Assembly: GCA_046597055.1 (NCBI GenBank)
Contig: JBKJLC010000160.1
Location: 1-45,641, forward strand
Source: Kofleriaceae bacterium
GTDB taxonomy: Bacteria > Myxococcota_A > Polyangia > Haliangiales > Haliangiaceae
Direction of reading: 5' to 3'
DNA length: 45,641 bases
Each line of letters begins with the position of its first letter. Within the stretch, counting starts at the first letter, position 1. The position numbers and the translations under genes are program-made. The notes under the pieces are model-generated. The model worked only from the letters and a program-made list of their open reading frames with translations, ran no database searches and was not told the origin of the DNA. Shown here in pieces: positions 36,012 through 45,640 of this stretch.

Positions 36012-36181
36012 GTTCGCGGAACCTACACTGCCGAGTGGGCGAGGACCACCCGCCCGTGCATCTGGCGCGCGTGCCGCGACGCCGGTGGGGAACGTCGCAC
36101 CACCGCGCCGGCGCGGCCGATCGTCCCGCGGATCTTGTAAGCTGCCCCGTCACTTCGTTTTCTTCGATGGGGGCTGACTGC

Positions 36182-38020
36182 ATGACGACTCGCCTGTGCT
36201 CCGTGCTCCTCCGCGCTGCCGCGCTCGCCACGCTCGCGACCTGTGGCGGCAAGGAGTCGCCCGCGATCACCAGCCCCGGCCCGACCACCGGCGCGACCGG
36301 CGGCACCGCGACCGGGACCCGGCCCGCCGACGCCACGCCGGATCAGGGCGCGCCCACCGGGCCCACGGCCCTCGGCGACGCCGTCGTCAACCACCTGCCC
36401 GAGGTCTTCCCGCCGCGCTGGAAGGCGGTCGGGGTCGGTCAGACCGTGTCGTTCTCGGTCGCCGCGATCGACCAGGATCTCGACGACGTCCGGGTCGAGG
36501 TCACCGCGATGCCGACCTCGGCGAAGTTCGATCCGCTGACCCAGACCGTGACCTGGAAGCCGACCCGGCGCGACCTGCCGAAGGGCAGCTTCGCGCTGGC
36601 GATCACCGAGCTCGGATCGGGCGCGACCCGGGCGGTGACCTGGGACCTCGCAGTCGCGACCCGGAAGCAAGACGTCACCCGGCCGCCGCCCGGCCCCGAC
36701 GCGGCCGAGACGCTGTTCACGATCCACGATCCGGCCCGGCTCGCCGACACCCGCAAGGCGTACCCGTTCGACACCATGCTCGCGCTCGGCGCGACGATGT
36801 TCCGCGCCAGCTTGCCGCCCGAGGCCCAGCAGAAGCTGGCGCCGGTCAACAAGGCGGCCCTGTTCAGGAGCTTCCTCAAGGGCATGGCCGCGATCCACCA
36901 GAACCCACGGCTCGATCCCGACGCCAAGGAGTTCGACCAGAAGGTCTTCGGTGATCCGAAGGCCTGGCAGCTGACCGTGGTGCGGCCGCGCATCGACAAG
37001 AAGCTGCACGAGCTGCGGCTGGTCTACCGGGCGGTGAACGCGCCCGAGCCGGTGTTCGCGATGTTCCGCGTGCGGCCGGTGTGGGACGTGCCGACCCTGC
37101 CGCCCGAGGGCAAGGCCCTGAACAACCAGGTCCTCGCCGAGCTGCTGTGGAAGCACCTCCTCACCGCCGACGGCGCGATCAACCCGAAGCTGGTGAAGGA
37201 CCGCCGCGCCCACGGCAAGGCGGTGCTCGCGTTCGTCCAAGGCGTGCTGACCTACCAGGCGGCGGACGTCGCCCAGAAGCCGTGGGCGCGCGCCGGCTTC
37301 ATCGCGCTGCCGACCGAGGCCCGCATGGGCGGCGGCTCGGCCCGCAACCCCGACGGCACCTACGCGTCGGGCGACGGCTGGGCGTGGAGCGTGATGAAGC
37401 CGATGGCGCTGCCTGACGGCGCGACCCAGGCCTACGTCAACATCCCGATCCCGGGCTTCTGGACCCACACGGTGCCGTCCCCCGACAAGACCGCGTGGAT
37501 CGGCAAGTGCGCGCCGGCGTTCGACCCCGACGATCCGAAGCACAAGGCCGGCCACGAGGTGCTGTGCCGCAAGGCGCTCGGCTTCGTCGACCTGCCCGAC
37601 ACCACCAGCGGCACCGTCGCCCCCGCGAAGATCGACGCGATCAACCTGTACCGCGCCCACAAGGAGGGCGACGCAGTCGCGCTGTTGCCGCTCGACGATG
37701 GCCGCCGCGATCACGGCGAGGAGAACGGCATGACCTGCGCGCAGTGCCACATGCGCACGTTCGGGGTCCGCGACTACGGGGACGCTGCCACCGCCGATCC
37801 CAGGGCGGGCACGCCCCGGGCGCCCAACCGGACCCTCCCGACCCTGAACTTCCAGATCGTCCCCGCCGAGTACTGGGAGGCCTACACGCTGGACTTCATG
37901 CAAGACCAGGCGTGCAAGGCCAAGGTCCACCTCGAGGCCGCGCTCGGCAAGCCGGCCGCGCTCACCTGCGCGCTCGCCGATCCGGCGGCCCCGCGCGTGA
38001 CCGCGCCGCTGACGCACTGA
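36182..38020 (+). CDS. Lipoprotein with Ig/cadherin-like domain and a C-terminal c-type heme motif
   Basis: Lipobox LATC, an Ig-like segment (VSFSVAAIDQD...TWKP) and CAQCH near the C-terminus. Confidence 0.7.
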   Translation: MTTRLCSVLLRAAALATLATCGGKESPAITSPGPTTGATGGTATGTRPADATPDQGAPTGPTALGDAVVNHLPEVFPPRWKAVGVGQTVSFSVAAIDQDLDDVRVEVTAMPTSAKFDPLTQTVTWKPTRRDLPKGSFALAITELGSGATRAVTWDLAVATRKQDVTRPPPGPDAAETLFTIHDPARLADTRKAYPFDTMLALGATMFRASLPPEAQQKLAPVNKAALFRSFLKGMAAIHQNPRLDPDAKEFDQKVFGDPKAWQLTVVRPRIDKKLHELRLVYRAVNAPEPVFAMFRVRPVWDVPTLPPEGKALNNQVLAELLWKHLLTADGAINPKLVKDRRAHGKAVLAFVQGVLTYQAADVAQKPWARAGFIALPTEARMGGGSARNPDGTYASGDGWAWSVMKPMALPDGATQAYVNIPIPGFWTHTVPSPDKTAWIGKCAPAFDPDDPKHKAGHEVLCRKALGFVDLPDTTSGTVAPAKIDAINLYRAHKEGDAVALLPLDDGRRDHGEENGMTCAQCHMRTFGVRDYGDAATADPRAGTPRAPNRTLPTLNFQIVPAEYWEAYTLDFMQDQACKAKVHLEAALGKPAALTCALADPAAPRVTAPLTH

Positions 38021-38037: not shown

Positions 38038-41013
38038 ATGGCCAGTCCCTCACCCAGCACCACCCGCGCGAGGAAGGCGAGCCTGCCCGTCGTCGGAGGC
38101 CCCGACACCGGCGGCGCCAAGCCGCCCAAGGGCGGCGGCGGCAAGGCCGCCAAGGTCCGCGCCGGCGGCTGGGCCGCCTTCACAGATGCCGGCACCGCGC
38201 CCCGGGTGATCATCGCGGCCCGGGTGGTCCTCGTGCTGGCGGCGGCCGCGACCGTGCCGACCCTGCTCGGCGTCTCGCACGGCAACCGGATCTTCTGGAC
38301 GATGGCCATCGCGGCCCTGCCGTTCTTCTTCGCGGTGGTCGGCTTCCACGTGTGGCGGCGGATCTGTCCGCTCGCCGTGGCGGGACAGCTCGGCCGGCTG
38401 GTCGGGCGGCCCGGCACCCGCAAGGTCGACGGCTGGCTGGCCGAGAACTACCTGCTCGTGCAGTTCGGGGTGCTGGTCGCCGCGCTGTCGCTGCGCCTGG
38501 TCGCGACCAACGGCTCGGCGCTGTGGCTGTCGGGGTTCGTGATCGCGGTGTTCGTGACCGCGGCGATCGTCAGCTTCCTGTTCGGCGGCAAGACCTGGTG
38601 CAACTACCTGTGCCCGGTCGGCGTGGTCGAGAAGATCTACACCGAGCCGTCGCGCAACGTCGCCGGCAAGGGCGAGCTCACGTCGCAGTGCGCGCCGTGC
38701 GTCGCGTGCAAGAAGCACTGTCCGGACATCGATCTCGAGCAGGGCTACTGGAAGGAGGCCTCCGAGCGCCCCCGCCGCCTCGCGTACTTCGCGTGGCCCG
38801 GCATCGTCGTCGGGTTCTATACGTACTTCTTCCTGGTGTCGGGATCGTGGGCATACTACTTCGACGGCGGCTGGGCCTACGAGCGCGACCTGCCGACCCA
38901 CGCCTTCGATCCGGGCTTCACGTTCGCGCCCGCGATCCCGCGGATCGTCGCCGCACCGCTGACGCTGATCGGCTTCGGGCTCGCGAGCTTCATCGTGTTC
39001 GCGGCGATCGAGCAGCTGGTCATGCGCCCGCGCCTCCGCCGGCTCGGTCCCGACGCGACCGCCGAGGCCAAGGACGCGCTGCGTGCGCGCGTGCGTCACG
39101 GCATGCTCGCGGTCGCGGGGCTGGTCGCGTTCAACGCGTTCTATCTGTTTGCCGGCCAGCCCTCGCTCGGGCGCCTGCCCGGCTGGGTCGTGACCGGCTG
39201 GGGCTTGATCGTCGTGTTCGCATCGACCGCGATCTTCATCCGCCGGATCACGCGCCGCGAGGAGCAGTACGTCCACGAGAAGTTCGCGCAGAAGATCCTG
39301 AAGAAGTGGGAGTGGGGCGACGCGCCACCGTCCGACAAGCTCGAGGACATCTACTTGCTCCACACCGAGCGCACGAAGCAGCGCGAGGCGCGGCTGCGCG
39401 CGTACAAGGAGACGGTCCGCGAGATGGTGGCCGATGGTCTGGTGACCCGGCAGGAGCTCACGATCCTCGACAGCCTGCGCGCCCAGCTCGGCGTGTCGGA
39501 CAAGGATCACCAGAAGATGATCAACGAGCTGTCCGCCGAGGAGCGCCAGCTGTTCGACCCGGCCTACCGCGGGTCGGTCGAGCAGCGCCTCAAGGGCGAG
39601 CAGTACCGCAAGGACCTCCAGCGGATCTTCATCGAGGCAGCGCGCTCGGGCGCCAAGCCCGCGACGTCGACGCTCGAGGCGCTGCGCCACGAGCGCGGGG
39701 TAACCCCCGACGAAGAAGAGTCCGAGCTCGCACGGATGCTCGCGCCCGGCGGTCCGATCGCGGCGCTCTACGAGGCGGAGCTCGCGGAGATCACGCGGCT
39801 CGTCGCGGCGGCCGAGGTCACGAATCATCCCGGCGCGGGCGCGGCGTCTGCCGTGAAGCCCGAGATGGAGCGAGCAAGCGAACGCTTGCAAGCGAGACCA
39901 GACGCCGACTCGGCCAGCCTCGCGCTGCTCCGTCACCTCGCACGGCTGCGCGCGCACGAGCACGCGATCAACGCGCTCGGCGTCCTCGCGGTGATGACCG
40001 ATCGACCCGAGGTCGAGCAGGTCCGCGCCCAGGCCGCGGCGCGCGGCGTCGTGCGCAGCGAGCTCCTCGAGATGCTCGACGCCGTCGACCCGGCACTCCG
40101 CGTTCCGCTCGTCGACGCGCTGACGCGGCTCGAGCGCGGCGGCGCGACCGAGCTCGTGGTGGGGCCCATCCTCGCGATCTCCGAGGATCCGTCGCGCTAT
40201 CTGCGCGCTGCGGCGGCGGTGTTGCTGTCGCGGTTCGACGACGACGGGTCACGCAAGCGCCTCGAGGCCATGCTCGACGACGGTGAGCCGATCGTGCGCG
40301 AGGCCGCAGTGCGGGCGATGGGCGCGAAGAGCCGGCTGACCCGCGATCTCCTGTCGAAGGTGCTGAGCGATCCGGATCCGATCGTCCGCAGCGCCGCCGT
40401 GCGCGCGGTGTCGGGGACGACCTCCTCGGAGCTGCCCGCCCTGAATCCGTCGATCTTCGCGCAGACCAAGCACGGCGTCGGCAAGCCCGGGGCCTACGCC
40501 ACGCTCGATGCCAACGCAGCGGTCGCCTCGCTGACAACGATCGAGAAGATGATGCTGATCCGCCAGGTCCCGATCTTCGCCGACCTCGGCCCCGATGATC
40601 TCGAGGAGCTCGCGACTGTCGTCGAGGAGCGTCGCATCGAGCCAGGCAAGGACGTGTTCCGCGAGGGTGACCCCGGCGATGCCGTGTACCTGATCGTGAA
40701 GGGGCTCGTGCGGGTATTCACCGGCGGCGATGGCGAGCGTCCCGAGCGCGTGCTCTCCGAGCTCGGACCGGGCGCGTGCATCGGCGAGATGGCGGTGCTC
40801 GATGCCGCGCCGCGCTCGGCGACCGTCCGTGCCATCGAGCGCACACGGACGCTGCGCGTGCCGGGCGAGGGCTTCAAGCGCGTGATGTCGGAGCGGCCCG
40901 AGATGTCGCAGGCGATCGTCGCCGAGCTCGTCAAGCGCATGCGCGGCATGATGAACAGCCCCTCGCCGGCGTCATCGAGCGCGGCGATCGCGATCCCGAA
41001 GCAGGATGCGTAG
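38038..41013 (+). CDS. Membrane 4Fe-4S (NapH/FixG-like) domain + HEAT repeats + cyclic-nucleotide-binding domain protein
   Basis: WRRICP, WCNYLCP and CAPCVACKKHCP. HEAT-like DPIVRSAAVRA repeats. cNMP domain FREGDPGD...GEMAVL...PRSATV. Confidence 0.8.
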   Translation: MASPSPSTTRARKASLPVVGGPDTGGAKPPKGGGGKAAKVRAGGWAAFTDAGTAPRVIIAARVVLVLAAAATVPTLLGVSHGNRIFWTMAIAALPFFFAVVGFHVWRRICPLAVAGQLGRLVGRPGTRKVDGWLAENYLLVQFGVLVAALSLRLVATNGSALWLSGFVIAVFVTAAIVSFLFGGKTWCNYLCPVGVVEKIYTEPSRNVAGKGELTSQCAPCVACKKHCPDIDLEQGYWKEASERPRRLAYFAWPGIVVGFYTYFFLVSGSWAYYFDGGWAYERDLPTHAFDPGFTFAPAIPRIVAAPLTLIGFGLASFIVFAAIEQLVMRPRLRRLGPDATAEAKDALRARVRHGMLAVAGLVAFNAFYLFAGQPSLGRLPGWVVTGWGLIVVFASTAIFIRRITRREEQYVHEKFAQKILKKWEWGDAPPSDKLEDIYLLHTERTKQREARLRAYKETVREMVADGLVTRQELTILDSLRAQLGVSDKDHQKMINELSAEERQLFDPAYRGSVEQRLKGEQYRKDLQRIFIEAARSGAKPATSTLEALRHERGVTPDEEESELARMLAPGGPIAALYEAELAEITRLVAAAEVTNHPGAGAASAVKPEMERASERLQARPDADSASLALLRHLARLRAHEHAINALGVLAVMTDRPEVEQVRAQAAARGVVRSELLEMLDAVDPALRVPLVDALTRLERGGATELVVGPILAISEDPSRYLRAAAAVLLSRFDDDGSRKRLEAMLDDGEPIVREAAVRAMGAKSRLTRDLLSKVLSDPDPIVRSAAVRAVSGTTSSELPALNPSIFAQTKHGVGKPGAYATLDANAAVASLTTIEKMMLIRQVPIFADLGPDDLEELATVVEERRIEPGKDVFREGDPGDAVYLIVKGLVRVFTGGDGERPERVLSELGPGACIGEMAVLDAAPRSATVRAIERTRTLRVPGEGFKRVMSERPEMSQAIVAELVKRMRGMMNSPSPASSSAAIAIPKQDA

Positions 41014-41052
41014 CGCTTGCGAGCCCGCCGTCCGCGCGCGTACGCTCGCGAC

Positions 41053-41331
41053 ATGAAGCGAGACGCGGCTCAAACCATCTTCCGCACCGTGGTGTTCGCC
41101 GGCGCGATGCTCGGCACTGGCGCGTGCGGCGGCAAGAGCAAGCCGGCACCTGCGGCACCGAGCAACACAGCACCCGCGGCGACCGACAACGCGACGCCGG
41201 CCGACGGCACGACCCCGGCAAACCCATGTGCCGGCGCCGACCCGTGTGCAGGCGCCGATCCGTGCGCCTCGCGGCCGCGTGTCGACAATCCGTGCGGTGG
41301 CGGCACCGGCCGCGGCTTCATCCTGTCGTGA
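41053..41331 (+). CDS. Small lipoprotein-like precursor peptide 1 (C-terminal TGRGFILS; (N/D)PC repeats)
   Basis: 92 aa with IFRTVVFAGAMLGTGAC leader and NPCAGADPCAGADPCAS...NPCGG. TACGCT lies 6 nt upstream of the ATG. Confidence 0.75.
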   Translation: MKRDAAQTIFRTVVFAGAMLGTGACGGKSKPAPAAPSNTAPAATDNATPADGTTPANPCAGADPCAGADPCASRPRVDNPCGGGTGRGFILS

Positions 41332-41455
41332 GCGTCATCCTGTCCTGACCGTCGGGGCCTCTCGGGTTCGAGATGGAACGAGCCAGCGGATGCTGGCGAG
41401 CGGGGCCTGGAATTCGGCGGGCCGCGGTGTCATCGTCAACACCCTGGGAGGATTC

Positions 41456-41890
41456 ATGGCGAAGCACCGCGAGCTTGCGAACATTGTCTTTGCGACCACG
41501 CTCGGTCATACGAGCGCATCGAAGATCTGGCGGACCGTGGTGTTCGCCGGCGCGATGCTGGTGACGCCGATCGCTGCCGGCTGCGGCGGTAACACCAAGC
41601 CCGCGCCCGTCGAGCCGATGCCGGTGACCCGCACCGAGCCCGCGCCCACCGAGGCCGAGCAGGACGCGAAGGAAGCCGACCAGAAGGCAGCCTCCGACAA
41701 GGCCGCCGCCGAGGCACAGGCGATGGCCGAGCAGGAAGCCGCCGACAAGGCTGCCGCCGATGCGGCCGCGAAGGAAGTCGCCGCCAAGGAAGCGGCCGAC
41801 CGCGAAGCCGCCGCTGCCGAAGCCGCGAAGAAGCCGCGCCCACGCACCACCAAGTCGCGCCCGACGGGCCGCGGCTTCATCCTGTCGTAG
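41456..41890 (+). CDS. Small lipoprotein-like precursor peptide 2 (C-terminal TGRGFILS)
   Basis: 144 aa with GGAGG SD, IWRTVVFAGAML...AAGC leader, an Ala/Glu/Lys helical middle, and a C-terminus identical to peptide 1. Confidence 0.8.
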   Translation: MAKHRELANIVFATTLGHTSASKIWRTVVFAGAMLVTPIAAGCGGNTKPAPVEPMPVTRTEPAPTEAEQDAKEADQKAASDKAAAEAQAMAEQEAADKAAADAAAKEVAAKEAADREAAAAEAAKKPRPRTTKSRPTGRGFILS

Positions 41891-41897
41891 CGCCGTC

Positions 41898-42776
41898 ATG
41901 GACGTGCTCGCCGCCGTCGATCCGCAAGGTCGCGACGAAACCTACGAACCGACGAGCCCGTGGTGGCTCTCGGGCACGCCGCTCGAGGCCGAGCATCACC
42001 GGCTGATGCGCCGGCGCTCGGTCTCGATCCCGTGGGCCGAGTCGACGGCCGCCGCACTGACCGCGCCGGAGCGTGCTCGGCTCGCCGGCACCTGGATGCG
42101 GCGCTCCGAGGCCGAGTACCTCGCGGTCTCGACCTTCTCCGTGCTCGCGCTCGATCTCGTCGCCGCGCGCGCGCCCGCCGACGTGCTGTCGCTGTGCCTG
42201 CGCGCTGGCATCGACGAGATTCGTCACGCCGAGATGTGCGTGCGGATGGCGGCGATCTACTCGGGCAAGCAGAACCTGCCGCCGTTCGGCATGTCCTCGC
42301 TTCCCGACGAGCCCGAGCGACCGAAGCTGCACCAGGCACTCGCGAACACGATGCTCGTGTCGTGCGTCTCGGAGACCTACGCGACGACCGTGCTCGCCGC
42401 GACCCTCGAGCTGACGACGGATCCCACGGCACATGCCGTGTTGACGTCGATCTACTCGGACGAGGTCATGCACGCGCGGCTCGGCTGGTCGTACCTGCGG
42501 CACGCGATCGAGACCGGCGATGCTGGGGTGATCGAGGCGGCTGCGCAGATGCTGCCGCGCGCGCTACGTGGCGTCGCGAATGTCGTCGAGGCCGAGCGGC
42601 CCGTCGGCGAGGTGACCCCGGCGGTGCGCACGCACGGGCTGATGACACCGGCAGAGGAGCGCGTGATCTTCGCGACCTGCGTGCGCGAGGTCCTGGTACC
42701 CGGCTTCCAGGCGCTCGGCGTGCCCGTCGGCAGTGCCCTCGACGATTACGGAGACGCATGGGCCAGCGCAGCCTGA
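41898..42776 (+). CDS. Ferritin-like diiron-carboxylate protein
   Basis: Paired E...DExxH motifs: EAEYLA...IDEIRH and VSETYA...SDEVMH. Confidence 0.8.
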   Translation: MDVLAAVDPQGRDETYEPTSPWWLSGTPLEAEHHRLMRRRSVSIPWAESTAAALTAPERARLAGTWMRRSEAEYLAVSTFSVLALDLVAARAPADVLSLCLRAGIDEIRHAEMCVRMAAIYSGKQNLPPFGMSSLPDEPERPKLHQALANTMLVSCVSETYATTVLAATLELTTDPTAHAVLTSIYSDEVMHARLGWSYLRHAIETGDAGVIEAAAQMLPRALRGVANVVEAERPVGEVTPAVRTHGLMTPAEERVIFATCVREVLVPGFQALGVPVGSALDDYGDAWASAA

Positions 42777-43387
42777 TCGCCGCCACCACGCTCGCGCTCG
42801 CCGGCCTCGGCGTCGGATGCCCGAGGCGTCACGAGCCCACGCTGCCGACCCGACCGGCCGAGCCCATACTTGCGCCAGTGACCGGCCTTGGTGCCAAGGT
42901 CGTCGCCGACTTCGAGGCCGCGGTCGGCAGGAGCAAGGACGCGTTCGTCGAGCTCTTCGATTTCGCCGCAGTCGGCGAGATGGAGATCCTGCTGCATCGC
43001 TACGATCTCAACGGCCGGCTCGCGATCACCGAGGACGAGCGCGCGCAGTTCGCCGCCGAGGACGGCACGCCGTACACGGCGGAGCGGGAGCGCCGTAACG
43101 TCACGAACTTCTATCCGTTCCTCGCCCAGCGCACCGTCGGCAACGGCGGCTGCATCGCGACCGAGCCACGGACGCGGTACGGCAAGCTACTCGGCCAGCC
43201 GTTCGAGCCGTTGCCCCCGAACACGCCGCCGGCCTACGAGACGCTACGCACGCACGCCAACGAGTGGCTCGCTCGCGGCGGCGTGGTCCGCATCGCGTGT
43301 CGCAACGGCGATGGTGGCCTCGCGCTGGTCTACACGGCGCGCGACAACGCCCGCGGCTACGATCTGATCACGATCTACGACGACTGA
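42758..43387 (+). CDS. Hypothetical lipoprotein
   Basis: GGAG SD and lipobox GVGC. The start overlaps the ferritin-like gene end. Confidence 0.7.
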   Translation: MGQRSLIAATTLALAGLGVGCPRRHEPTLPTRPAEPILAPVTGLGAKVVADFEAAVGRSKDAFVELFDFAAVGEMEILLHRYDLNGRLAITEDERAQFAAEDGTPYTAERERRNVTNFYPFLAQRTVGNGGCIATEPRTRYGKLLGQPFEPLPPNTPPAYETLRTHANEWLARGGVVRIACRNGDGGLALVYTARDNARGYDLITIYDD

Positions 43388-43407: not shown

Positions 43408-43435
43408 CACGCACGCACGCACGCACGCACGCACG
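43408..43435. repeat. (CACG)7 tetranucleotide microsatellite
   Basis: Seven perfect CACG units between convergent genes. Confidence 0.85.
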
Positions 43436-43490
43436 CGCGCTCGATCCCGCGTGGCACGCAACCGAGCCCACCCGCCACGACCGCCCGCCA

Positions 43491-43908: not shown

Positions 43909-45021
43909 TCAGAGGTAGTAGTGCAGCTGGAGCAAACCGAAGAAATCGCCACGGCTGATCTCGAACGCGACGGTCGATGCTCGCAGTAGCGCGGACACCT
44001 CGAAGTGCGCGCGCGGGAACCACGCCATCTCGATGTCGAGCGCGGCACGTTCGTCGCGACGCGCGCGGAGATCCGGATCGAAGTGATGTGCCCCCAACGC
44101 GAGGCTCCAGCTCTTCCCGGCGCGATACCGAGCGTTGGCGTAGCCCACAAGTCGGCCGACATTTGCACCATCGAGATGGATGACGCCACCGTCGAGCTCG
44201 ACCGAGAGCAGCAGATTCACCGACGACAGCCAACGCTTCCATGCGCCACCGGCCCAGCTCTCCGTGCTGCCGTCGTCGTGAAGCGCCTTGCCGTGGAGCG
44301 ACCAGCTGCCCGTGCCATCTCCGGTGATGTGCTCGATGTGGAACGCGCCTCCCCAGCCATGCCGCCCGACGCGCGGCGCGAGCTCGAGCGGCGTCAGCAA
44401 GGTGACGTGTGCCTCCCAGGTATCCTTGATCAGCCCTCCGCTCGCGGCGTAGCTCTCCTCGAGCGTGTGCAGGCCGGTGTACCGACGTACGTAGGCGGTG
44501 TGATCCGGAATCCGTAGCCCGAACATCGGAAAGAACCGGCCTGCGCGGACGTACCATTCGCGCGATTCGGCCTGATAGAGGATGTAGTGCTCGCGACTGC
44601 CGAGGCGATCGGTGAGTGGCTGCGCCTTGCGAATCGCGGCGAGCACGCCAAACGTCGCCTGCGCCGACACATTACCGCGTGCGACGCGTGCGTAGACATC
44701 CGCCTGCATCGGGAACACGGCGGTTTCGGTTCCCTGGCGGACGTGCTTGCCGAGCGCCGCGACGCGGAGGTCACCGCCGAGCGCCAGCCAGGTCGGCAAC
44801 TCGAACAGACCGTGCGCGAACCGGCCGTCTCCGGCACCGGAGATCGTCGTCGCTGCTTCATCGCGTCCGTAGTCGTTGATCAGACCACCACCGACGGGCG
44901 AGAAGTGACATTCGGAACAGCGCGTCGTCCCGGTCGAGAACTGGAACTCGGGATAGCCATCCGCTCTCCCGAGACCGATCACGAGGACGAACACGACGGT
45001 CGACCAGAACGTCAATCGCAT
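43909..45021 (-). CDS. Outer-membrane beta-barrel with N-terminal CxxCH heme motif
   Basis: Signal peptide, CSECHFSPVGGG, amphipathic beta strands and C-terminal LLQLHYYL barrel signature. Confidence 0.75.
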   Translation of the reverse strand: MRLTFWSTVVFVLVIGLGRADGYPEFQFSTGTTRCSECHFSPVGGGLINDYGRDEAATTISGAGDGRFAHGLFELPTWLALGGDLRVAALGKHVRQGTETAVFPMQADVYARVARGNVSAQATFGVLAAIRKAQPLTDRLGSREHYILYQAESREWYVRAGRFFPMFGLRIPDHTAYVRRYTGLHTLEESYAASGGLIKDTWEAHVTLLTPLELAPRVGRHGWGGAFHIEHITGDGTGSWSLHGKALHDDGSTESWAGGAWKRWLSSVNLLLSVELDGGVIHLDGANVGRLVGYANARYRAGKSWSLALGAHHFDPDLRARRDERAALDIEMAWFPRAHFEVSALLRASTVAFEISRGDFFGLLQLHYYL

Positions 45022-45398
45022 GGAGCCCCGCGACTCATCCACGACTCGAACAGCTCGATCTCGATGTCTGCGAGCCGTCCGTTGGGTGGCATCCCGGTGG
45101 GACCTTCCCTGCGCAACAGGCCGGAGAGGAGACTGCTGGTGGGATTCATCACGTCGACGTAGCCCGTGACCGGCGTGGTCGCATCTCCGCACTTGCGTCC
45201 GGTCAGGCTCTCGTACGCCGCAGCATCATCATGGAGCGCGAGATTCCCTGCGACGGAGAGCTCCGAGTGACACGCGCTCGTCGTGCAGCTCGGCACGATG
45301 ATCGCCGAGTAGATGTAGTCCCACCGCTCGGGACGCTCGGTCGCGCACGCGGTCGCGGTCGCGAGCCAGGCCAGCGTCGCGACCAGCGCGAGCTTCAT
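45012..45398 (-). CDS. Small lipoprotein c-type cytochrome (CX4CH...MPP)
   Basis: Lipobox ATAC, CTTSACH, distal MPP ligand and a terminal WMSRGA motif. Confidence 0.7.
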   Translation of the reverse strand: MKLALVATLAWLATATACATERPERWDYIYSAIIVPSCTTSACHSELSVAGNLALHDDAAAYESLTGRKCGDATTPVTGYVDVMNPTSSLLSGLLRREGPTGMPPNGRLADIEIELFESWMSRGAPCD

Positions 45399-45640
45399 CG
45401 ATGAGCGTCCGAGGCGTTCGCCACGTACACCAGTCGCCCACCCGCGTCGCCGACGCGGTAGCCGGCATAGGAGCCCGCGAACAGCCCGGCGATCGCGATC
45501 GCACCGAGGATCTGCTGGCGATGTCGATCGCGCTGAAGGAGGAACGTCACGCCACACAGGACGAGGTTCCCACCAGCGACGTACAAGAACCAGTACGCCC
45601 GTGACTCATGAGTCGACAGCGCTTCCTCGCTCGCATAGCC
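45395..45640 (-). CDS. Partial membrane protein, DUF2231-like (start lies beyond the window end)
   Basis: Open to the window edge: ...THESRA, two TMs, GDAGGRLVY. ATGA overlap with the next gene. Confidence 0.5.
   Translation of the reverse strand, partial: GYASEEALSTHESRAYWFLYVAGGNLVLCGVTFLLQRDRHRQQILGAIAIAGLFAGSYAGYRVGDAGGRLVYVANASDAHR

Follow-up and report, generated by a model that had tools for sequence, protein, structure and literature searches.

A recurrent myxobacterial cassette of GRGF-tailed precursors, a ferritin-like enzyme and a lipoprotein, and its possible role in protein tagging

The window analysed here is a stretch of 45,641 nucleotides from a Kofleriaceae bacterium (assembly GCA_046597055.1, contig JBKJLC010000160.1, positions 1 to 45,641), and our subject is a small gene cassette lying near its end on the forward strand. 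It comprises two genes of presumed precursor proteins, the gene of a ferritin-like enzyme and the gene of a lipoprotein. Precursor A (92 aa, 41053..41331) consists of a leader or signal helix with the conserved motif IFRTVVFAGAM (41077..41109), a lipobox Cys at position 25, four DPC/NPC repeats, an RPR motif and the C-terminal tag GRGFILS, which together with its stop codon occupies 41308..41331 and is a candidate modification site. Precursor B (144 aa, 41456..41890) carries the corresponding leader motif IWRTVVFAGAM (41525..41557), likewise conserved, a lipobox Cys, a Pro-rich and then Ala/Lys/Glu helical spacer, RPR and the same tag and stop (41867..41890). The gene of the ferritin-like dimetal enzyme, a putative oxidase/oxygenase of 292 aa (41898..42776), begins 7 nt past the stop of precursor B, and its own stop is overlapped by the gene of a 209-aa lipoprotein of no known family (42758..43387).

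An initial annotation, made from the letters alone, had observed that the two small open reading frames (ORFs) resemble each other only at both ends, and this observation proved sound. They share I[FW]RTVVFAGAML, a Cys with GG behind it, RPR and TGRGFILS before the stop, and their middles are unrelated (DPC/NPC repeats in A, Ala/Lys/Glu helix repeats in B). The spacing of the enzyme gene and its two DExxH motifs (D106-E107-x-x-H110 and D188-E189-x-x-H192, in addition to E73 and E159) had been read correctly as well. Its lipobox-like C-G-G needs correction: the Cys is present, but a lipobox is defined by the residues before the Cys, by eye AAGC in B and TGAC in A. The likeness of the ends is real and far from chance. 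TGRGFILS occurs four times in the 15.7 million six-frame residues of the genome, every time at the end of an ORF, twice in the window genes and twice on contig C52, where the cassette has a second copy. That copy belongs to a divergent block (G000:C52:11716-19824, L021; DNA identity 66-75%) with genes of a transketolase, a large lipoprotein, a ferredoxin/cyclic-nucleotide (cNMP) protein, two precursors, the enzyme and the lipoprotein; its second precursor has a DUF1573 domain and no lipobox. Library scans assigned neither the precursors nor the enzyme nor the next gene to a Pfam or NCBIfam family at cut-off.

For the anatomy of the precursor family we used 110 distinct full-length sequences. 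The set started from 115, rows without a recognisable leader and two unpublished rows were removed, and a further set was added. The proteins span 81-251 aa and are conserved at both ends only. At the C terminus the pattern is RxR...GRGF[IV]L[SA]: GRGF, by which the set had been chosen, is found in 110 of 110, then [IVL], followed by L in 109 and by S or A in 106. RxR precedes the tag in 108 of 110, lying 6-11 residues ahead of the final eight residues in 106, and the spacer between them is unconserved. Across 96 genes the third positions of the tail codons vary synonymously, so that the constraint acts on the protein. At the other end, the leader I/T-W/F-R/K-T-V-V-x-A-G-A-M-L is almost fixed. 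The middles are filled by DPC repeats, Ala/Lys helices, Gly/Ser runs, coiled coils or whole domains, namely DUF1573 (E 2e-17, 4e-19) and PEGA (E 4e-9). The idea of a membrane-anchored lipoprotein may hold for a part of the family: a pattern test for [AGS]C soon after the leader finds a lipobox-like Cys in 84 of 110 precursors, both window genes included, but 26 have no lipobox, 20 have no Cys at all, and the tag also sits on folded-domain and non-lipidated proteins. The DPC/NPC repeats were considered as the target of the enzyme and rejected, being present in just 50 of 110 precursors and also in two other lipoproteins of the genome that carry neither leader nor tag. These two small lipoproteins (G000:C231:20083-20310 and G000:C285:8593-8937) have an ordinary signal peptide, and their repeats may bind metal on their own account.

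The association of tag and enzyme had been set beforehand as the observation on which the proposal depended, and we found that tag, leader and enzyme strictly co-occur. All 147 genomes of the order were sampled, with an orthologue threshold for the enzyme of E <= 1e-40. No claim depends on two of these genomes, G466 and G467, which are unpublished: among the other 145 the enzyme is found in 59, the tail in 62 and the leader in 56. An enzyme orthologue is encoded in 61 genomes and the pattern of tail plus stop in 64. All 61 enzyme-positive genomes have the tag, compared with 3 of the 86 enzyme-negative ones, which is below the reversed-pattern control (19 genomes in all, 11 of them enzyme-negative). 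The three enzyme-negative matches are off-consensus: two are leaderless ORF ends and one arises through a Trp codon in place of a stop. Because circularity had to be avoided, the leader was also searched alone. It was found in 58 of 147 genomes, every one enzyme-positive, with a control of 0; the three enzyme-positive genomes that were missed have IWRAV leaders, which lie outside the pattern. Out of 114 leader matches, 108 are followed within 900 nt by an in-frame tail, two by a tail out of frame and four by none that fits the pattern. Of these four, a first ends in GRGFILR, a second is cut by the end of its contig, a third is located no more than 62 nt from a contig end and the fourth reads on into unrelated sequence.

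Within loci the arrangement is close as well. The tag stands within 400 nt upstream of 55 of 63 enzyme matches, and one to three precursors with the same end are present per locus. More than 4 kb from the enzyme, or on other contigs, lie 33 of 128 tail matches, a mixture of chance matches, contig breaks and real precursors in trans; two of the latter share the contig of the enzyme, at distances of 43 kb and 0.9 Mb. Inside one genus the enzyme is patchy (38 of 91 genomes). A class-level search returned a match in 33 of 401 genomes, three of them outside the order, and a phylum-wide search with the tail pattern restricted to stops other than TAG matched 10 of 401 genomes, which outside the order is the control level. 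The genomes are kin and not independent samples.

The initial annotation regarded two precursors and the enzyme as the entire system and thereby overlooked the third obligatory gene, which extends the cassette past the enzyme to 43387. The 209-aa lipoprotein is found in 63 of 147 genomes, that is, in all 61 enzyme-positive ones and in two fragmented assemblies. Twenty-four sequences share 38 invariant columns, many of them acidic or aromatic, and two Cys; the invariant motifs are FDF, ExLxRYD, TPY, RExxNV and a C-terminal RGYxxxTIYDD. It has 429 homologues, all "hypothetical protein" among the matches listed, with no match in the PDB and no Pfam family. Weak leads from the structure atlas (score 0.76-0.79, below 0.9) are NTF2-like, presumably members of the NTF2-like clan. 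Directly after its stop there is a short tandem GCAC repeat (43410-43440). We conclude that the three-part cassette of precursors, enzyme and lipoprotein is real and conserved, and that it recurs in one group of myxobacteria.

The model of the enzyme is all-helical (pLDDT 92.7, the predicted score in the local distance difference test) and adopts the ferritin-like helical-bundle fold. Its best structural matches are PaaA-like proteins, aldehyde-deformylating oxygenase-like proteins, MMOH and R2 (Z 17-19, root-mean-square deviation (rmsd) 2.6-4.6 Å, 208-248 residues aligned). At the head stands 4mud, a PaaA-like archaeal protein (Z 19.4, rmsd 2.6, 208 aligned), followed by PaaA itself (3pvr_A; Z 17.9, rmsd 3.3, 223 aligned), aldehyde-deformylating oxidase (Z 17.4), MMOH (17.2) and R2 (17.0). 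Foldseek with the same model gave no row at E <= 0.001, with the same families on top. The ligand set E...ExxH...E...ExxH is complete: all 18 orthologues retain E73, E107, H110, E159, E189 and H192, and among 61 wider homologues five of the six are kept in all, E189 in 58. No signal peptide was seen, and the enzyme is predicted to be cytoplasmic.

The comparison with AurF-type enzymes, suggested by the initial annotation, did not survive. Among natural sequences in the PDB, AurF matches best, at a weak E of 4e-5. The third His of AurF and CmlI is replaced by Ile185, a position that is Ile in 18 of 18 orthologues and Ile or Leu in 54 of 61 homologues; we take this His to be the third metal ligand of AurF, four residues before the last Glu. 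Since the extra His aligns to I185, the predicted site is a 4-Glu/2-His dimetal site and the enzyme is not a member of the AurF family. At the gathering score of PF11583 the window enzyme gave no match, and one distant homologue passes (34.3 vs 29.6). Fold and 4-Glu/2-His pattern are shared with PaaA/PaaC, aldehyde-deformylating oxygenase, MMOH, R2/R2lox and AurF/CmlI, from which the enzyme differs in having 9-17% sequence identity to them. Known ferritin-like diiron oxygenases act on small molecules, free or bound to coenzyme A or a carrier, and a shared fold alone shows no reaction.

Beyond the order, an enzyme profile search collected 8213 clusters at 50% identity (E <= 0.001), 29 of them at 1e-30. 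The nearest atlas clusters are mostly Myxococcota hypotheticals, and the database names of homologues read "ferritin-like domain-containing protein" from Kofleriaceae or Myxococcales. Many of the best 150 relatives consist of a lipoprotein-like N-terminal part fused to the domain. Locus scans for distant enzymes yielded 4 loci and 1 locus. In eleven of 15 distant-enzyme loci a small ORF with a signal lies directly upstream (three of these loci represent one clade); three others hold fused forms and one is a partial match. The upstream peptides of sibling clades end, by eye, in motifs of their own (WGPP, GPLPP, LGPAP, RIGP repeats). Sibling clades with their own peptide, in some cases with a Cys-rich end, or with a fused form were seen at L147, L149, L150, L153-L159 and L161, and as paralogues in the genome of the window (L022-L025). 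A distant orthologue in another order (L148:1723-3999, G232) is preceded by a peptide with VVRSVVMGAAMI, a lipobox and the ending RPR...TRGFAG, and has a radical SAM gene upstream; this locus is a variant with a putative extra modifying enzyme. Because its peptide has TRGF, the invariant core narrows to R-G-F. The tail might have been the counterpart of the GRP[FY] motif in fused relatives. This found no support: in the profile alignment GRP falls on the N-terminal G[TS]PL of the stand-alone enzyme, each 20 residues away from a conserved Trp, and no alignment of the precursor profile to GRP[FY] was obtained. A search for fused precursor forms gave three matches and no true enzyme fusion, which is weak evidence.

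How enzyme and precursor might meet is indicated by a model of their complex. Enzyme, precursor A and two irons were modelled together with a score of 0.79, compared with 0.22 for the best of three controls. The runs have at least 21% of contacts in common, and the pLDDT of the partner is 46-47. The confident interface is formed by precursor residues 1-19 (I9, V13, V14, A16, G17) and, on the enzyme, by T160, T163, V190, R194, W197, S198, V265 and G269, so that the leader is predicted to occupy a groove beside the second ExxH motif. Conservation across 45 distant homologues is higher at the 26 interface positions than in random sets (0.53 vs 0.42; 2/2000). The model of a fused relative gives its N-terminal signal helix a block pLDDT of 78-90, which would fit a packing of this helix on the domain. 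Of the earlier claim that the enzyme acts on the tail, the model thus supports binding of the precursor, but the contact it predicts is with the N-terminal leader.

We consider it probable, by a modest measure, that the signal peptide doubles as a leader, that the enzyme oxidises the G-R-G-F tag before export and that the partner lipoprotein binds or finishes the tag. In this model, the conserved N-terminal helix would serve both as Sec signal peptide and as recognition leader. The cytoplasmic enzyme would hold it in the groove beside the second ExxH, and this binding might hide the signal from the export machinery. The 4-Glu/2-His site would then activate O2 and oxidise the C-terminal tag. 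As for the residue attacked, ring hydroxylation or desaturation of Phe is our first, still tentative candidate; N- or C-hydroxylation of Arg and oxidation of Gly or the backbone with cleavage are each possible to a lesser and mutually equal degree. The product would remain attached to the protein, be exported and, where a lipobox is present, lipidated, and the modified tag would be displayed at the end of a spacer or a folded domain. Outside the cytoplasm, the 209-aa lipoprotein would bind the tag or process it further. The initial annotation had proposed a system of ribosomally made peptides that are modified after translation (RiPPs) or of post-translational modification. Precursors with a conserved terminus are indeed tied to an enzyme, but the presence of the tag on folded-domain and non-lipidated proteins points to protein tagging more than to a small-peptide pathway.

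Several points weigh against the proposed oxidation of the tag. Its central elements, namely the reaction, its site, the export and the role of the partner, are what we infer, and the binding of the leader comes from a model. In that model the tail is not confidently placed and gives evidence neither way on a link between tail and active site. The controls were unrelated proteins and not other signal peptides, so any hydrophobic helix may dock in the same manner. The score mark is reached by 116 of 157 solved complexes vs 2 of 215 mismatched pairs, a calibration that holds only roughly here because our own alignments and iron were used, and the conservation of the interface lies in part at positions adjoining metal ligands. 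The invariance of GRGF is partly circular, owing to the choice of the precursor set by this pattern. The minimal cassette has no reductase. Finally, we found in the open literature no ferritin-like enzyme that acts on a ribosomal peptide, which leaves the chemistry without direct precedent for such substrates.

Different explanations of the same cassette have to be weighed against this. The tail might stay unmodified and act as a signal for sorting or docking that the 209-aa lipoprotein, a protease or a transpeptidase would read, with an enzyme that binds the leader and oxidises RxR, the leader itself or a small molecule. We judge this unlikely, if far from negligible: the lipoprotein co-occurs as tightly as the enzyme and its invariant acidic and aromatic residues would suit an Arg-rich ligand, RxR is nearly constant upstream of the tag, the tag is found on folded DUF1573 and PEGA domains and in genes far from the enzyme, and the modelled contacts are with the leader only. 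On the other hand, no tag family without the enzyme was found in the 147 genomes, and in sibling clades the C-terminal motif of the peptide changes with the enzyme, as a core sequence does. A classical RiPP, in which the modified tail is cut off as a diffusible peptide (a signal or antibiotic) and the lipoprotein serves as peptidase, receptor or immunity protein, seems rather improbable to us. It would account for several same-ended precursors per locus, for RxR as a possible protease site 6-11 residues upstream and for the radical SAM gene beside the distant orthologue. It sits badly with the loci read, whose cassettes contain no visible protease or exporter, with the unconserved spacer between RxR and tag, and with middles that are costly, being folded or long coiled coils (up to 251 aa), and would be pointless in a peptide destined for release.

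Lower still we place a purely non-covalent function, in which the ferritin-like protein is a chaperone of signal peptides or a redox- or metal-gated checkpoint of export. The signal peptide is indeed the sole confident contact in the model, and the top Foldseek rows include ferritin-fold subunits that are catalytically silent (PaaC); yet none of the 18 orthologues departs from the full ligand set, and the conserved tail would be left unexplained. It is very improbable that peptides and enzyme are functionally unlinked and adjacent by common descent alone. The kinship of the genomes, with most matches in one family, speaks for such a view, but the cassette is patchy within one genus, its three genes are gained and lost together while the flanking gene stays, and it is solely enzyme-positive genomes that have precursors in trans, at distances of up to 0.9 Mb on the same contig.

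The closest known systems are the DAG-RiPPs DybA/DybH, NedA/NedBC and MelA1/MelH (Chen et al., PNAS 2026, PMC13056109; preprint 10.1101/2025.10.31.685832). Like these, the cassette combines a putative lipoprotein or Sec signal, a variable middle, a conserved C-terminal motif and a neighbouring, putatively cytoplasmic modifying enzyme; the use of iron and action before export are described for DAG-RiPPs and would apply here by our proposal. Middles of DAG-RiPPs range up to folded proteins of >30 kDa (PMC13056109). Their enzyme is a multinuclear non-haem iron-dependent oxidase (MNIO), a TIM barrel working on Cys motifs, whereas here we find a predicted ferritin-like helical bundle, with no DUF692 match in Pfam or NCBIfam, and a tag free of Cys. 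For DAG-RiPPs, relaxed selection on the N terminus is described and leader-independent pathways are expected (PMC13056109); in contrast, the signal peptide is the most conserved part of our precursors and is modelled on the enzyme. The word "ferritin" has 0 occurrences in the main text of the preprint and of the PNAS version. In bufferins, oxazolins and other signal-bearing MNIO substrates a Sec signal replaces the classical leader, and preliminary data suggest that the signal peptide belongs to the recognition sequence and stays masked until modification (PMC12452194). These systems rely on a partner of DUF2063/RRE type (RRE, RiPP recognition element) and on Cys, unlike the present cassette, which has no such partner and in which the enzyme itself is predicted to carry the groove.

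A C-terminal tag on diverse exported myxobacterial proteins is also known from MYXO-CTERM and myxosortase, where a dedicated processing enzyme exists, as is putative here. In MYXO-CTERM an invariant Cys is combined with a transmembrane helix and an Arg-rich end, and a CPBP protease does the cutting (PMC11980579). The GRGF tag has neither Cys nor transmembrane helix and is tied to a putative diiron enzyme and a conserved leader; the precursors scanned gave no NCBIfam match and do not show this anatomy. A review of heme-oxygenase-like enzymes sets these apart from ferritin-like oxygenases. No description of the three-part cassette was found in the open literature, subscription papers being outside this coverage. 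The cassette is thus apparently undescribed and, by analogy, would work like a RiPP-lipoprotein pathway with a new class of enzyme.

Upstream of the cassette, at 38038..41013 on the same strand, lies the gene of a membrane protein with NapH/MauN-type 4Fe-4S, HEAT and cNMP-binding domains. It was tried as an obligatory part and rejected: although syntenic in most loci, it is encoded in 86 of 147 genomes, among them 28 that lack the enzyme, and is followed by other genes in the enzyme-negative loci read. As a non-obligatory neighbour it is a possible electron donor. With the preceding gene (36035-38020), for a lipoprotein of about 600 aa with CxxCH (possible haem c) near its C terminus, it forms a conserved pair of no known family that is also kept without the cassette and may be an electron-transfer module under cyclic-nucleotide control. 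Beyond the cassette, the minus strand at 43909-45557 encodes two proteins: a small lipoprotein with CxxxxCH, and a larger one that bears a signal, has CxxCH near the N terminus and ends in an aromatic C terminus. Neither has a Pfam match, paralogues exist on three other contigs, and the two are possibly a cytochrome/porin pair.

The precursor genes seem to differ in their promoters. In front of precursor A, a putative housekeeping-type promoter (TTGCGA, 18 nt, TACGCT; 41017..41046, forward strand) ends 6 nt before the ATG, and the transcript is probably leaderless, as far as the sequence tells. Of 41 A-type (first-of-locus) precursor genes, 28 have TAnnnT at 5-8 nt ahead of the ATG, compared with a rate of 1.4% before random ATGs, and just 3 have Shine-Dalgarno-like sites; a strict sigma-70 scan gave no promoter match at precursor A. 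Precursor B is preceded by a bipartite promoter-like motif, CTGGAAT ... GTGTCATCGT (41407..41436, forward strand), whose general form ahead of second-type precursor genes is CTGG[AC]A ... RTG[TG]CATCGT. Its second half stands upstream of 26 of the 43 precursor genes that lack a leaderless -10 box vs 0 of the 53 that have one, over a background of 0.0007 per 120 nt, a post hoc statistic because the motif was derived from the same sequences. It is a possible alternative-sigma promoter. Given these different motifs of first and later precursors, A and B may be regulated apart.

The origin of the stretch deserves a remark. Positions 38137-43387, covering the ferredoxin/cNMP gene and the cassette, share 89% identity with G446, a genome of another genus, and the window enzyme groups inside the clade of that genus (support 100/96; 100/99 with G446). 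The part of the window at 26-38 kb is nearer to its own genus (73-82% vs 68-74%). Contamination of the assembly amounts to 7.55%. Contamination by the whole contig was rejected, its tetranucleotide profile being ordinary (rank 149 of 183) and only 38137-43387 looking foreign. This segment may have arrived by horizontal transfer or gene replacement, or may stem from a chimeric assembly; the finding of the cassette is independent of either.

On a broader scale we tentatively entertain, with more doubt than confidence, a new myxobacterial system of protein anchoring or ligand display. The enzyme would read the signal peptide as its leader and write a new, Cys-free modification onto the Arg-Gly-Phe tag of whatever cargo carries it, and the lipoprotein would capture or cross-link the modified tag in the envelope; the cassette would represent one clade of a superfamily thousands strong, split or fused, with core motifs of their own. 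If the oxidation of the tag proves true, ferritin-like diiron oxygenases would count among the modifiers of ribosomal peptides and proteins, with a Cys-free chemistry on Arg, Gly or Phe. The signal peptide would be a leader bound by the enzyme itself, explaining how an exported substrate is modified before export, and the seven-residue tag, found on very different cargoes, could be a portable modification tag. There would also be a direct handle on a very large myxobacterial family labelled merely "ferritin-like domain-containing protein". Should the broad reading of the superfamily hold as well, ferritin-like oxygenases would constitute a whole new class of peptide-modifying enzymes.

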